The position numbers and the translations under genes were made by a program. 64,000 nucleotides of DNA, taken from positions 224,936,001 through 225,000,000 of the forward strand of contig OZ024741.1 of the NCBI GenBank assembly GCA_964016885.1, written 5' to 3'. This document shows positions 2,992 through 53,790 of the stretch, piece after piece. Within the stretch, counting starts at the first letter, position 1. Every line of letters begins with the position of its first letter. Source of the DNA: Eledone cirrhosa (taxonomy: Eukaryota). The notes under the pieces were generated by a model that was not told the origin of the DNA, searched no databases, and saw only the letters and a list, made by a program, of their open reading frames with translations.

Positions 2992-3535
2992 AAATTGTTA
3001 AACAATATTCAATGATTATGTCAAAGAATGAGTTTTACAGTAGATTGGAAGCACTCAACGGTAAAATAATTTTCTGGAGTTCTTAATATTAAAATATAAG
3101 TATTAATAAAATAGATGTTCTTTTGATCAATTACATTTTATTATACATATTTCGGATGTACAACAGTACGTCCTCATCAGACAAAATATAATGATACATG
3201 ACATACCCTGAGATGTTAAATGGTTAAGATTTAATCAAGGTAGTGATTAACCCGATAGAAAATTTTACTTATATCCTATCTATGTGAAAGTGCGAAATCG
3301 TAATAAATTCATTAGAGAATGTGTAAGAAAAAATGTTGTATACTGTAAGTGTTCTAAAATTTTAAAGTGTATGATACTACAATATATAACTAGGAAAACG
3401 TCTCATGAATCATAACAGCCAGTGATAGCCACTGGAAAAAGATTTATAAGGACGTACTGTTGTACTGTTGTACATCCGAAATATGTATAATAAAATGTAA
3501 TTGATCAAAAGAACATCTATTTTATTAATACTTAT
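2992..3535. mobile_element. Two-armed hammerhead-bearing element (family H1) embedded in (TA)n
   Basis: 3448-3535 is the reverse complement of ~3093-3172. Homologous sequence occurs at 27593-27855 and 47760-48065. Confidence 0.7.
3134..3188 (-). ncRNA. Minimal type I hammerhead ribozyme (family H1)
   Basis: Minus strand reads tattttgt-CTGATGA-ggacgtac tgtt gtacatcc-GAAA-tatgta-TA-ataaaatg. Stems I and II pair and stem III is near-palindromic. Confidence 0.75.
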
Positions 3536-3650
3536 ATATATATATATATATACTGTGGACGTGGAAGTAGCTTCAAAGTTTAAATTTGGTCGCTTCATAT
3601 ATATATGCATATATATTTATATATATATAAATATATATATATATATATAT

Positions 3651-4175
3651 ATAAGAAAGTTAGTCCATAGAATCATTTGATAAAATATATACAGTATTTC
3701 TTCTCCCAATCAGCATAATCAGCCATTTTGAATTCGTTTCTGGCGGGGATCATTTAAGAAAAATCTTTGTCCAATTGAGTTTATTTCCTGATGATTTCGA
3801 AACTCGTTGATTTATCCATGATCGGATATTTCCGAAAAGCGAATGAAAAACCTCGGGCGAGGGGGGGGGGGGTAGAAACAGGATTTTGGTATGTTTATGT
3901 ACATTTTATCTTCTAACTTTGATTTTGTACCTAATTGAGTTGGTTAACTATATGTCTAGTCAATTTCTACGGGCTATTAGGAATACTAGGTAAATCTTCT
4001 GTGGTTGTGAGTCGCGGATAAAATAGGTATCATTTATTTATCTATTGTTTCTTCATAGCTACATTTTAAACTTATAGCCTCGTTTAATTGATTTTTTATG
4101 TGGTTGATTATGCTGATTGGGAGAAGAAATACTGTATATATTTTATCAAATGATTCTATGGACTTACTTTCTTAT
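3651..4175. mobile_element. Element with ~75-bp terminal inverted arms next to (TA)n
   Basis: ataagaaagttagtccatagaatc...aatcagcataatcagcca (3651-3725) is inverted at ~4101-4175. Confidence 0.6.
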
Positions 4176-5949
4176 ATATTGCTCTGATTGTTGATTATTT
4201 AATTAATTAATTTGTCATTGCGCCACACCATGAATGGTTGCCAAAAACATATATATATATCTATGGCTCTGTCTAGTTTATGTATATGTAAACCTATATA
4301 TATATATATATATATATATATATATATATATATATATATATATATATATATATATATATATATATATATATATATATATATGCATATATATATATATATA
4401 TATATATATATGCATATATATATATATATATATATATATATATATATATATATATGCATATACAGTATATATGCATATATATATATACAAATATATATAT
4501 ATATATATATATATATATGCATATACAGTATATATGCATATATATATATATATATACAAATATATATGCATATATATATATATATATATATATATATATA
4601 TATATATATACACAGAAATATCCACGGTTAGTTGTGGGGTCTAGTCTGCATGAAGAACTCAATGTAATCCATATGTTGAAAATGTTGTAGGTTAAAATAA
4701 ATCCCGGAGAACAATAAAACATCAAGAGGAAAACAGAGTCATGATATAAGTTAAAACAATGAAATAAAAATTCAAGACATATACTTCACTGCTTTACGAT
4801 CGTTTCTAGGTGATAATAATACATTGTACGCATATTTCGTTATCGATCTATGTAGGGTTAGTTACAAAATATCAAATAAGGAATATATTTACCTACATGT
4901 ATATCATCAGCCGTTGTCAAAAGCAATGAGAATTTTATTCAAAAACAATAGTAAATTGAGTTCCGTGACCTTATTTGGGGGTAGCTGAAGAACAAACCAA
5001 TCAAATGGTTATTTGCCATATGATGTTAAGATGAAATATAACTGACTTTAGTTGAGGTCATGACCCTTTGAAAGGAATGGTTGAATGGTGTTAAAAATAG
5101 AATTACTATAAAGAATCTATGAATAAAAAGGAATTGTTATATTGACAGTGGAATGTAGATGGTGGAGTGAAATTTAAAAAGGAATGTAAAAATTAAATGT
5201 TGAGTTGTGTTATATGGAATTTTTAGGTGAATATAAATAAGTAGATATAAAATATACAGAAATAACTAGGATAAGTATAGATAAGTAAAGTAATGGTCAT
5301 AACTATGAAGCGGCCAAATTTAAACTTTGAAGCTACTTCCACTTATCTACTTAGAAAATCATTTTCTACATTCTACGCACTAGAGTTTTGAACACTCATT
5401 CAGTTAATGTTTGACTGTTTTAAATATGACGGTATTTAAAAAATGATATTCTAATGTATGTATGTATGTATGTATGTATGTATGTATGTATGTATGTATG
5501 TATGTATGTATGTATGTATGTATGTATGTATGTATGTATGTTTTCTCTTTCTCTTAATTTCGAGTATATTTTTTTGACCGACCACCTTCCTGGTGGCAAG
5601 GTTGTAAAAGAAAAGAAATTATCATCACTTGAATCGCAAGAATGTTTTGCAAATTTTGAAGGTGCCAGCTATCGCAGCCATTTGTAGACTATGAATTAGG
5701 GAGCTGCGCTTTTTGTCCGCAAATGTATGTATGTATGTATGTATGTATGTATGTATGTATGTATGTATGTATGTATGTTTGTATGTTTGTATGTATGTGT
5801 GTATGTATGTGTGTATGTGTGTGTGTATGTATGCTCTGGTTTTATAATTTCACAAATGTTTGCCAATAAAGAGAGAGTCGGTTTCTAACATAGACACAAG
5901 ACTCTCTCATTGGAATTTACACAACATCAACTATGTATGCATGCATGTG

Positions 5950-6725
5950 TAGATATAGATGTTATTGTATGTGTGGATGTGGATGTTTTGAGTTGTATGT
6001 GTGCATGTGTATATGCTTTGTATCCGTACAAGTGAATATGCAGTTATTAGATGCAACAATTTTGGAATGTTTTACCTATTTTTACTGTTCCATTAATGGA
6101 TTGTACTTGTAATTTCCTAACTAGTTGTGTTCTTTCTGTTCCTGTGAAGCCTAGCTTCTCAAGATTTGTATTGAGGCAGTTACTAACATATCCCAGTGCC
6201 CCAATAATCAAGGGCATAAATCTGAAGGTGTAATCAGGGTGGAGTATCTGCAGATTTCTCATTAGTTCTGCATAACTAGATATGGATGATATTGTATGTG
6301 TGGATGTGTATGTTTTGAGTTGTATGTGCGCATGTGTATATGCTTTGCATCTGTATATGTGTATATGCAGTTATTAGATGCAACATTTTTGGAATGTCTT
6401 ACATATTTTTACTGTTCCATTAATGGATTGTACTTGTAATTTCCTAACTAGTTGTGTTCTTTCTGTTTCTGTGAAGCCTAGCTTCTCAAGATTTGTATTG
6501 AGGCATTTACTAACATACTCCAGTGCCCCAATAATCAAGGGCATAAAGCTGAAGGTGTAATCAGGGTGGAGTATCTGCAGATTTCTCATCAATTCTGCAT
6601 AAATATTCTCCTTTTCGCTAATCTTTGATATTATATTGGCATCTGCTGGGCAGCTAATTTCCACTACTATGCATGCTTTCTTCCCTCTGTCCCATAGCAT
6701 AATATCTGGTCTGTATGCCTGCATT
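5950..6725 (-). pseudogene. Two tandem 3' ends (327-bp offset) of an R4/Dong-like non-LTR retrotransposon, restriction-like endonuclease C-terminus
   Basis: [22 protein letters not shown]...KISEKENIY...PLIIGALGY is a PD-(D/E)xK REL motif. Stops at 6047 and 6374. Bounded by (TATG)n. Confidence 0.8.
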
Positions 6726-51767: not shown

Positions 51768-52699
51768 CTTACTGTTCCACCACCAAGTTACTCTCCTCCT
51801 GCCAATAGGTCTATTTAAAACAGCACCTACGTACGTTTCGCCCGGATGGACTTCTCAAGGGCATAAATAGCTAAAAGTGTTCCTTGCATGGCCCGGAAAG
51901 TGTTTTTGGAGGTAAGTTCACGTCAGAGTTCATTCTTCGCCAAAAAAGCGTGTTTTGATTTTGCAGTAGGTCAAGGGAGGTAACATACACACACACACAC
52001 ACACACACACACACACATATATATATATATATATATATATATATATATATATATATATATATATATATATATATATATATATATATGTATATATATATAT
52101 ATATATATTTGTATATGTATATATATATTCATTCTGACAACTGAAGACAGACAAGAAAACACTGGTAAATGAAATAATTATCTTATGTTGTTTATTACAT
52201 AACTAAATATATATATATATATATATATATATATATATATATATATATATATATATATATATATATATCCAAGGATAACTTGAACCGTTAAGGTATATTC
52301 TCCTTCGTTATGTCAAAATTTATAAAACACACTTCGTATTTTATTGGATGATAGCGTACCAAAATTTTTGGTACCCTTGAAATATATATAATAGAATAAA
52401 TATGGTTTTATAAATATAGTTTCAATTTATTTAATATCATTGTATATATATATATATGTGTGTGTGTATATCTTTATATATATATATATATATATATATC
52501 AAGTCTATATTGTCGCAGCGCGTAATATGTATGGGTTGTCTATGTATGTGTGTGCTTCTTCTTCATTTTGTGTTTTAATGATTTGATGTGGTTTTTTCTG
52601 GTTTTGAAGGATGATGATGATGATGATGATAATGTAGAACATAATAAAATCACGATGAAGATGACGATGGCGATGGTGATATTGACAAGAACATTATGA

Positions 52700-52802
52700 T
52701 TTCTTCTTCTTCTTCTTCTTCTTCTTCTTCTTCTTCTTCTTCTTCTTCTTCTTCTTCTTCTTCTTCTTCTTCTTCTTCTTCTTCTTCTTCTTCTTCTTCT
52801 TC
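52700..52802. repeat. (TTC)n microsatellite
   Basis: Read directly. Confidence 0.95.
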
Positions 52803-53452
52803 GTTGTAGGTGTTCTAGTTGTTGTTACTGTTGTTATTGTTATTGTGACTTACAGTTGTCACTTCTATTTATTGTTATCATCTGGAAGTTATAACAGTGC
52901 AGTTCTTGTTATTGTTATTACTGCTGCTACTGTTGTTGCAGCTGTCGTTGTTGTTGTTGTCATCATTTAGCCCCAGGTCAACCCTGATCCAACAAATCTC
53001 TTGTCAAATCTGTTCAGAACTGTGATCATTCTGTCTGTTGTTGTTTTTTGGTTTTTTTTTTTTTATTGACATATAACTACATTATCTACGATAGAGGTTC
53101 TGAAAATGGGGCTCTATCCGACCCCCAGGGGCATTGCGAAGGTCCAGGTGATCGCTGGCGCCTGAGGGGGCGGCTAGGTGGAGAGGGTGGTAGAGATGGT
53201 ATAATAGTATATTAAATATGAAACGATTTATATATATACAAGTTCTTTCGTTACTTTGGTATTGTGTGGTTGGGTTTTGCCTACCGCAAGTTCAATTTGT
53301 CAATCTATTTAAACGTATGTTAATACTCTAAGGACCTACCCTTATTGAGTGCTTTGCTAACTCATTCCTATTGTAGGTCGACTTTGTTTGCCCACAGCCA
53401 AAGCTTCGATTTTACTAAGCTTCCACTTATATATATATATACAATAGAAAAT

Positions 53453-53790
53453 GAAAAATCAGTGATGCATCTGAACTCAATTTATTGTGTGTTACAATTG
53501 TTTCCCCGACGGACAGCTCGAGACGCGATCATTGTGTGGATTTGTCTGATTCTGGACCCGCAGGTTGGATGGACACAGCTAATGATCTCGGAGCATATGC
53601 TCTGAAATCATTAGACAGATCCACACAATGATCGTGTCTCGAGCTGTCCGCCGGGGAAACGATTGTAACACACAATAAATTGAGTTCAGATGCATCACTG
53701 ATTTTTCGTTTTATATTTTATCATACTCTGCTCTGTAAGAGCATAGAATGCTCAACCGGCATACCGCCTTTGGAAGCATCTTAGCTACCA
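53453..53790. mobile_element. Fold-back element with ~95-bp inverted arms; related copy at 55698-55905
   Basis: 53453-53547 is inverted at 53613-53707. 55698-55905 shares the left arm and the ctctgctctgtaaga...ggcataccgcct tail. Confidence 0.75.

Follow-up and report, generated by a model that had tools for sequence, protein, structure and literature searches.

In the stretch of the Eledone cirrhosa genome considered here (the window, 64,000 nt of contig OZ024741.1), hammerhead ribozyme motifs lie in outward-facing pairs, mostly within TA runs, which raises the question of what these insertions are and how they came to have two arms. The original prediction held that about a dozen short insertions from unrelated families share a divergent two-arm design and that a single Penelope-type machinery moved many small ribozyme RNAs into (TA)n. 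We find that the pairs are mostly stumps of Penelope-like elements (PLEs) and non-coding ribozyme repeats. The best explanation, which we regard as probable, is that they are PLE insertions with one long and one short fixed end each, arising from two RNA start sites, one per cut strand, and a head-to-head join. They would be mainly the 5'-truncated 3' ends of many autonomous Hydra-type families, together with tandem non-coding hammerhead repeats. The features are listed below, with arms called long or short after the end that they carry.

2988..3545: family B pair; long arm on the minus strand (hammerhead 3142-3180), short arm on the plus strand; (TA)n on both sides
9188..9484: family H, old inverted pair (68%); hammerhead-like core on the plus strand at 9375; not in (TA)n, weak member
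9594..9769: family C; left arm short, right arm long
9809..10128: family C; left short, right long, with a whole hammerhead of variant core near 9944 in the right arm
11961..12073: family D; short arm on the right, left arm cut off and without a TA run
19746..20126: family E; left short, right long
25410..25885: family D; left short, right long, the matched parts separated by a TA run
26318..27565: family F, tandem non-coding retrozyme with a unit of ~565-577 nt; plus-strand hammerheads at 26820 and 27399; the left end is long and the right end short
27586..27858: B-related; left short, right long
27957..28128: family C; left long, right short
42377..42516: family C; left short, right long
45007..45196: family C; left long, right short
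47310..47524: family A; arms without overlap, the left one long but consisting of 40 nt of tail only, the right one short with the hammerhead 47417-47471
47545..47720: family F37; left long, right short
47754..48064: B-related (F16); short arm left (hammerhead 47810-47859, minus strand), tail-only long arm right
48109..48542: family A; left short, right long; 99% palindrome with a hammerhead in each arm
48927..49257: family A; left long, right short
53439..53795: family G, degenerate core; left short, right long and ending in (CA)n
55687..55906: family G; left short, right a tail-only long arm
56244..61894: non-coding 310-nt hammerhead units arrayed divergently; 1586 nt on the minus strand (short end), 4065 nt on the plus strand (long end)

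All 12 loci named originally consist of two outward-facing arms of a single family, but they represent eight families rather than 12 unrelated ones: family A (47311, 48121, and 48928) and B-related sequences (2992, 27593, and 47760) occur three times each and families C, D, E, F, G, and H once each. The left arm had been described as an inverted partial copy, which fails at 47311 and 47760, where the arms have no sequence in common because the long arm is tail only. Likewise, the placement mostly within (TA)n does not extend to 9200-9470, bounded by (ATGT)n and (CA)n, and the locus at 11961 has neither a TA run nor a defined end on its left side; two further loci reach beyond the boundaries first drawn (19752 to 20126 and 53453 to 53795). 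The orientation of family H is read from motifs only, since the pair is old (68% arm identity) and 1.9 Mb of sequence contained no real second copy, just a single 24-nt match. Seven two-armed stumps in the window were not among the named loci, nor was the inverted array of 310-nt units (56244-61894).

The absence of convergent examples, also claimed originally, was borne out: among pairs joined directly, with no TA run between the arms, 18 in the window are divergent and none is convergent. Three convergent neighbors do occur, and each has a TA run between its arms, so we regard them as separate insertions. The proposed genome-wide count of divergent versus convergent pairs was made on 1.2 Mb of evenly spaced tiles (600 kb plus a held-out 600 kb), where all 85 opposite-strand pairs joined without a TA run were divergent (53/53 in the first set and 32/32 in the held-out set); extrapolated from 85 pairs per 1.2 Mb, the genome would hold ~200,000. 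A convergent pair is nearly forced to contain TA because the 3' ends abut TA (197 of 264 arms end in it); what the orientation test shows is that directly joined arms always meet at their 5' sides. Type I hammerhead motifs exceed the chance level, with 78 in 600 kb (two shuffles gave 2) and 68 in the held-out 600 kb (one shuffle gave 4). The cores of families C, D, and G are variant. The Rfam matches listed for the window (150 of 582) all belong to miRNA families hitting simple repeats and hairpins, and so have no bearing on hammerheads.

The two arms of an insertion end differently. Each family has two fixed 3' ends, ~30-125 nt apart and bimodal within the family, and the tail that separates them measures 40-123 nt, or ~30-35 nt in the 310-nt unit; the short ends lie at TA-rich spots of the element. 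Among 135 untargeted pairs, 90 combined a long with a short end, 4 were short plus short, none was long plus long, and 41 were unscorable, when about half would be expected to be long plus short if the sites were chosen independently. When family B copies were selected solely by the final 65 nt of the tail, 20 of 30 had an inverted partner with a short end (for the others, the partner end was long in one, the partner was a fragment in one, and none was called in eight). Exceptions exist: loci L121 and L045 are short plus short, L101 and L303, both from targeted searches, are long plus long, and sample families F6, F10, and F15 showed equal ends on both arms with the seeds used. Counted by arms, 130 of 264 had a partner under the pairing rule, and the unpaired ones comprised 54 short, 54 long, and 26 unassigned. 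Seed clusters that were satellite or doubtful (F5, F9, F20, F21, F26, F28, F30, F31, and F38) or of low complexity or redundant (F32, F35, and F39) were left out before counting, as were loci duplicating the window or one another. In one public sample, each run yielded 35-44 short-read contigs in which family A gives way to TA at the short site. Sequencing runs X5 and X23 gave almost no coverage.

Inverted arms with TA flanks look like MITEs, and one could take them for DNA transposons of that kind, or for chance palindromes, whose terminal inverted repeats are fixed and sit in TA sites. A count of local fold-backs in 600 kb (satellite tile L079 left out) gave 93, of which 44 are unexplained by our family library, as such a reading would allow. 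The other 49 overlap these families, so the expectation that some palindromes are retro-products holds (many of the small ones here are), and 40 of the 93 abut TA directly at one end and have a tail of 20-160 nt at the other; only five are flush on both sides, all of them overlapping these families. Moreover, the arms are PLE 3' ends with hammerheads, the two ends are unequal, and the junctions differ between copies, so that fixed terminal inverted repeats, named originally as one observation that would count against retrotransposition, are refuted for the tested families, and a DNA-transposon or chance origin is hardly credible. Around half of the sampled small fold-backs may thus be PLE products that MITE finders could mislabel. 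We consider an assembly or long-read fold-back artifact extremely improbable as well: large near-perfect nested palindromes do exist (L045), and none of the short-read contigs listed spans a whole tested stretch, but the arms are diverged and asymmetric with family-specific ends, the flanks are not mirrored, and the short end and many alternative junctions recur in short-read contigs, from a sample that may be the source of the assembly.

Adjoining inverted 5'-truncated copies, tails on one end, and (TA)n ends together constitute the PLE insertion signature and support the predicted retrotransposition of Penelope type into (TA)n; all three traits have been published for PLEs. A same-strand GIY-YIG ORF lies 0.8-1.45 kb upstream of families A, C, D, E, and several sample families (for E at a single locus), and in locus L101 family B is followed by the start of an ORF. 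Overall, links to RT or GIY-YIG ORFs were seen for A, B, C, D, E, F2, F12, F27, and F40, the linkage of A and B being read from partial copies rather than from one intact ORF-to-tail copy. The order RT then C-terminal GIY-YIG was found in L051, L160, L031, L068, and L058, an RWK/RWR motif in L049 and L058, a DKT motif in L049, L051, L058, and L068, and a CxCx5C linker in L051, L058, L160, and others, whereas the CCHH motif, read by eye, is absent from the endonucleases of L051, L026, and L111. By these predicted features (domain order, motifs, absence of CCHH) together with the hammerhead motif and insertion into (TA)n, the elements are of the Hydra type and probably belong to the Hydra clade; L049 resembles, by eye, Hydra-1_Obim in the supplement of Craig 2021. 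Database matches were weak: RVT_1 of Pfam matched the linked ORFs weakly (E=0.012), Pfam gave no GIY-YIG match for the window ORF or the Hydra-type endonucleases, and among the unnamed Atlas neighbors one cluster carried GIY-YIG in 31% of its members. A DNA search of the genome with family C and the A and F2 tails gave no matches, but the method skips very common words, so that these negatives carry no information.

These linkages bear on the idea that a single PLE machinery mobilizes many small ribozyme RNAs unrelated to one another, every family being non-autonomous. Family F and the 310-nt unit suit it, as both are tandem and dispersed and carry the PLE footprint with no ORF-bearing extension seen. 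For the ORF-linked families it is refuted, and as a general account we consider it very unlikely: the ORFs are many and divergent, and at least two PLE types take part. Since the linked GIY-YIG endonucleases are often only 30-65% identical to one another, many autonomous families would each leave their own stumps. The original claim of a shared machinery therefore does not apply to most families, which have their own ORFs, and trans-mobilization is likely only where the families are tandem and lack ORFs (the 565-nt F and the 310-nt unit); families G and H showed no ORF link.

How the second arm arises is best judged from the junctions, which vary between copies, as had been suggested as a check. 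In a snap-back scheme, cDNA would start at the long site and prime itself, the endonuclease would trim the second arm at the short site, and later off-center deletions would give the asymmetry. Palindromes do undergo center-break revision. Arkhipova 2013 takes junction palindromes as self-priming, and Craig 2021 (PMC8557442) puts the tail down to endonuclease resolution. Of 93 pairs with mapped junctions, 29 are level, near-perfect palindromes with junction hot spots at hairpins, which, like the arms of the same subfamily, fit this scheme; within the size range detectable both ways, the direction of asymmetry was also not significant (16 versus 10, p=0.33). Nevertheless, we consider snap-back unlikely for the following reasons: (i) in 18 of the 93 pairs the long arm is tail only and the arms do not overlap, which argues against its simple form; (ii) the short arm reaches further 5' in 50 pairs (the long arm in 14), including young B copies with 96-100% identity, so the short arm was not copied from the long one; (iii) age, by a crude proxy, is no higher in asymmetric pairs (44) than in symmetric ones (40; p=0.73); (iv) six junctions of 310-nt arrays have a gap of 0 and no overlap; and (v) start sites described in vitro (PMC11167929) coincide with both tail boundaries.

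In the two-start-site explanation, either one RNA or two may template the arms of an insertion. In six of seven families, the arms of one insertion resemble each other more than they resemble other copies, family D being the exception (7.5% within versus 5.4% between insertions), but time-stratified subfamilies or gene conversion could also make arms alike. One RNA would predict long arms stalling at the short start site; only 4 of 30 family B long arms start within 20 nt of it, which is not significant, and short-read joints were set aside as evidence of stalling because they are biased by mappability. Arms that start at the ribozyme cut were not visibly in excess, but in families C, D, and F7 such short arms fall below the 22-28 nt limit.

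According to Frangieh et al. 2024 (PMC11167929), the purified Poseidon PLE protein PAc cuts and extends both strands of an AT-rich target and starts at two internal RNA sites bounding the tail, with no strand difference in start site, an uncleaved RNA template, and a predicted dimer; in the parts of the paper considered here, the two sites are not tied to the two arms of one insertion, and inverted copies are not explained. In the mechanism that we propose, both cut strands of a TA run would prime reverse transcription at two different RNA start sites, each strand using one of them, probably through a dimer bound to a single RNA, and the two cDNAs would then be joined head to head, their 3' ends meeting bluntly or through short complementary stretches. 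RNA hairpins and palindromes may supply such stretches and so account for the junction hot spots. Retrozymes would borrow the PLE protein in trans from a circular or multimeric template; on a circle, two enzymes could roll around, writing divergent multi-unit arrays. The specific version, in which a dimer holds a single RNA at its two fixed start sites and copies it onto both strands of a (TA)n double-strand cut, with circular retrozyme RNAs yielding the arrays, is put forward tentatively. If it is true, the long-plus-short head-to-head pair is the normal integration product, the PLE tail and inverted copy are explained as a single step, and the arrays are a physical footprint of PLEs mobilizing animal retrozymes.

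The closest known elements are the Hydra-clade PLEs of Craig et al. 2021 (PMC8557442), including Hydra-1_Obim of Octopus bimaculoides, which share the RWK-type, DKT, and CxCx5C motifs, the C-terminal endonuclease, a canonical hammerhead, the (TA)n target, heavy 5' truncation, and an adjoining inverted copy, the tail often being on a single end. That study lists few molluscan families, with tails of 30-40 nt, and calls the origin of PLE tandem and inverted structures an open problem; here, there are many divergent high-copy families, mostly with tails of 65-125 nt, several conserved core variants, and a pairing that was counted and is near-obligate. We found no published count of strict long-plus-short pairing, nor the long/short-end footprint on retrozymes, in the literature searched; the supplements of Frangieh 2024 and Li 2026 may show such pairing of arm ends.

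In LINE-1 twin priming, both target strands prime on the RNA, giving an inversion. The likeness to our pairs lies in two-strand priming and inversion; here, in contrast, the second site is fixed rather than opportunistic, full overlap of the arms is frequent, and a poly(A) end is lacking.

Finally, the mobilizer of animal retrozymes has so far been argued from co-occurrence and phylogeny. Tandem hammerhead units, with PLEs as proposed mobilizers, have been described for metazoan non-LTR retrozymes (non-coding, with type I hammerheads; Cervera and de la Pena 2020, PMC7229834) and by Li et al. 2026 (bioRxiv 10.64898/2026.07.22.740005); the word "inverted" is absent from the former and occurs once in the latter. 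Unlike known retrozymes, the arrays here are divergent two-arm (TA)n insertions with PLE long and short ends. Near-obligate pairing, non-overlapping arms, and this footprint yield a clear-cut prediction for the in vitro PLE system already available. Both window retrozymes are dispersed, with one type I hammerhead motif per unit, and long was paired with short in every scorable two-arm array (18/18 for the 310-nt unit and 7/7 for the 565-nt F). The 310-nt unit has a folding z of -4.4, and in the window array its units are identical, with the junction at 57829/57830.

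The divergent two-arm pattern is real, genome-wide and of a known kind. In the window (35% GC and microsatellite-dense, in a host genome of 3.0 Gb), self-comparison of the masked sequence recovered inverted pairs or opposite-strand family arms, an arm being one of the two outward-facing family copies of an insertion, at all 12 loci named in the original prediction. Orientation was scored with hammerhead-oriented seeds built from the window, the first evenly spaced genome tiles and flanks, and same-family, opposite-strand neighbors no more than 1.5 kb apart were taken as a pair. 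Divergent pairs without an intervening TA run numbered 18 in the window, 53 in the first tiles, and 32 in held-out tiles, and divergent pairs with such a run 1, 4, and 5, respectively; convergent pairs numbered 3, 9, and 4, none of which, in any of the three sets, lacked a TA run. The earlier statement that no convergent example was seen is correct for directly joined arms; the three convergent neighbors in the window, each with a TA run between, are taken to be separate insertions. The anticipated genome-wide bias is also present, as every directly joined pair in both tile sets is divergent. Given that TA adjoins the 3' ends, the count demonstrates no more than a constant 5'-to-5' geometry for direct joins.

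A descriptor scan placed type I hammerheads, mostly with a stem III that is short and palindromic, in families A and B, the 565-nt tandem retrozyme F, and the 310-nt unit arrayed at 56244-61894. The scanner returned 78 matches in the first 600 kb of evenly spaced tiles (2 in two shuffles) and 68 in the second 600 kb (4 in one shuffle). Variant cores occur in families C and D, and such variants run family-wide: U3-A8 or C3-A8 in C, U4A in D, and a double change in G, whose core is degenerate at most loci where it was read and which was oriented through homologous relatives whose core is canonical. Family E has a canonical core in L067. The claim that insertions lie mostly within (TA)n holds for families with defined ends, where TA adjoins the 3' end of 197 of 264 arms, but not for family H, which lies outside (TA)n and has no real second copy in the 1.9 Mb of genome sequence compared. 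Solitary hammerhead-core motifs were also seen at 3788-3887 and 19499, the latter resembling sample family F33 by eye.

What the original prediction lacked is a rule concerning the ends. In every family the 3' end falls at one of two sharply defined points, here called long and short, which lie 40-123 nt apart (~30-35 nt in the 310-nt unit) and are separated by a tail. Among 135 untargeted divergent pairs, 90 joined a long to a short arm, 4 were short+short, and none was long+long; 17 had an unassigned end, and in 24 the family's ends are not defined. Of the four short+short calls, two appear to reflect an interrupted or poorly matched long arm. Pairs picked by a long-arm query (n = 22) were long+short in 20 cases, long+long in 1, and unassigned in 1. 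At 30 family B loci picked by the tail's final 65 nt, 3 of them already in the earlier sample, the partner was short at 20, long at 1, a fragment at 1, and not called at 8. Sample families F6, F10, and F15 are exceptions, showing equal ends with the seeds used. Our rule paired only 130 of the 264 arms whose families have defined ends, leaving 54 short, 54 long, and 26 without an assigned end.

The pairing extends to the retrozyme arrays. F arrays end at unit position 435 or ~557, and all seven with both ends visible (the window and six of 25 partly overlapping fetched loci) are long+short. Arrays of the 310-nt unit are dispersed, with near-identical copies; across the window, 20 stretches of 10 kb, and tile L057, all 18 scorable two-arm arrays are divergent and long+short, one further two-arm array was unscorable, and four loci carry one arm only. 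Their junctions are spread over the whole unit, with a gap of 0 in six and a short overlap in most others. Arms reach ~13 units, so a circular or uncleaved multimeric template would be needed. No ORF-bearing extension was found for either tandem window family. An older, diverged 310-nt subfamily occupies both arms of one array (L269) and recurs in L258, which at its plus end grades into a diverged unit. Between 54 and 92% of sampled words from one unit (61103-61412) occurred in sequencing runs coded as 18 different organisms, and a wide or horizontal distribution is possible on this basis.

Tight junctions are available for 93 untargeted long+short pairs. Their long arm is on the left 45 times and on the right 48 times, and in 18 pairs it consists of tail only. 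It is the short arm that extends further 5' in 50 of the 93 and the long arm in 14, with the two level within 5 nt in the other 29; with the 310-nt junctions, this bears out the expectation that inversion points differ between copies. Hairpins and small palindromes are where junctions concentrate, and in family C this also makes the called start points less sharp. We consider it probable that two target-primed cDNAs, each started from its own fixed site, would be joined head to head. LINE-1 twin priming and palindrome revision by a center break are known processes. Snap-back, in which a cDNA started at the long site folds back and the second arm is trimmed, appears unlikely to us: it cannot yield a short arm reaching beyond the long arm, as in the 50 pairs. 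Later off-center deletion of the palindrome would rescue it, and the direction of asymmetry, where the range is detectable both ways, is not significant (16 vs 10, p = 0.33). Asymmetry does not rise with a crude age proxy (44 vs 40 pairs, p = 0.73), a point that speaks against snap-back. Arms differ less within than between insertions in families A (0.9 vs 2.0%), B (2.4 vs 7.6%), C (5.6 vs 14.0%), F2 (0.8 vs 8.7%), F7 (3.4 vs 14.1%), and F8 (0.6 vs 7.0%), which is compatible with copying from a single RNA or from sister RNAs, or with gene conversion; family D is the opposite (7.5 vs 5.4%).

Several families connect to Penelope-like elements (PLEs). Followed upstream, family A passes through a long 3' region into sequence coding for RT and GIY-YIG. 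On the same strand, 0.8-1.45 kb upstream, there is an endonuclease ORF at five loci of A, three of F2, two each of C and D, and one each of E, F12, F27, and F40; F10/F36 are placed after a different PLE type. In L101 an ORF starts ~60 nt past the long end of family B, and one endonuclease was found repeatedly in inverted arms of three family B loci. Database matches to the linked ORFs are weak. They carry RWK/RWR, DKT, and CxCx5C motifs and, by eye, no CCHH; judged by sequence motifs, they would match the Hydra clade, which PMC8557442 defines by these features; the supplement of that paper includes among its entries Hydra-1_Obim of Octopus bimaculoides with a (TA)n preference. The endonucleases are often 30-65% identical to one another, and therefore many autonomous families, rather than the one machinery proposed originally, are indicated. 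Separately, 54253-55146 (minus) encodes a 298-aa PLE C-terminal stretch that combines a GIY-YIG of the CCHH type with a Cx4CxxC linker and which by motif we take to be Neptune-like; a Pfam search with it gave no match, and relatives occur in tiles L048, L145, L146, and L157.

The first tiles, with satellite tile L079 left out, contain 93 local fold-backs, of which 49 overlap the family library. In 40, one side is flush with TA and the other carries a 20-160 nt tail, and in 5 both sides are flush; random positions fall within 15 nt of TA in 3.7% of cases and at 20-160 nt in 14.2%. In one public sample, which may be the source of the assembly, 35-44 short-read contigs per run have family A giving way to TA at its short site, and many alternative junctions are seen. 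Kilobase near-perfect inverted duplications enclosing several PLE stumps (L045:279-5170, also L042 and L035) are either real or assembly artifacts. Further inverted repeats, apparently outside the hammerhead families, lie at 3654-4172 and 10598-10700.

The architecture itself is already published. Earlier papers describe PLE insertions with an inverted copy truncated on its 5' side and a tail of 30-40 bp, which is often confined to one end (PMC8557442), and an optional tail on one inverted pLTR with a self-priming model (PMC3846280); related work includes PMC11167929, bioRxiv 10.64898/2026.07.22.740005, PMC7229834, PMC7761336, PMC13282606, and PMC9977147. A literature search covering few subscription papers found no count of long+short pairing, no proposal of one start site per strand, and no report of a PLE footprint on retrozymes. 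What is added is a testable constraint on the mechanism, provided by the near-obligate long+short pairing, by arms that do not overlap, and by the recurrence of the pattern in retrozyme arrays.

The window also contains the following elements, of which the LINE ORF is presumably RTE-like:
49634-51854, minus: broken LINE RT ORF (RVT_1, E = 4e-21) that encloses a PHD-finger match
7669-8460, plus, and 6047-6844, minus: LINE C-terminal fragment with zf-RVT, and duplicated 327-nt retroelement coding fragment
484-1825, 13379-14392, 34545-35116, and 63229-63444: SINE-like 192-nt unit, as a 7-copy tandem and dispersed relatives
31167-32768: minisatellite, 52 copies of a 31-nt unit
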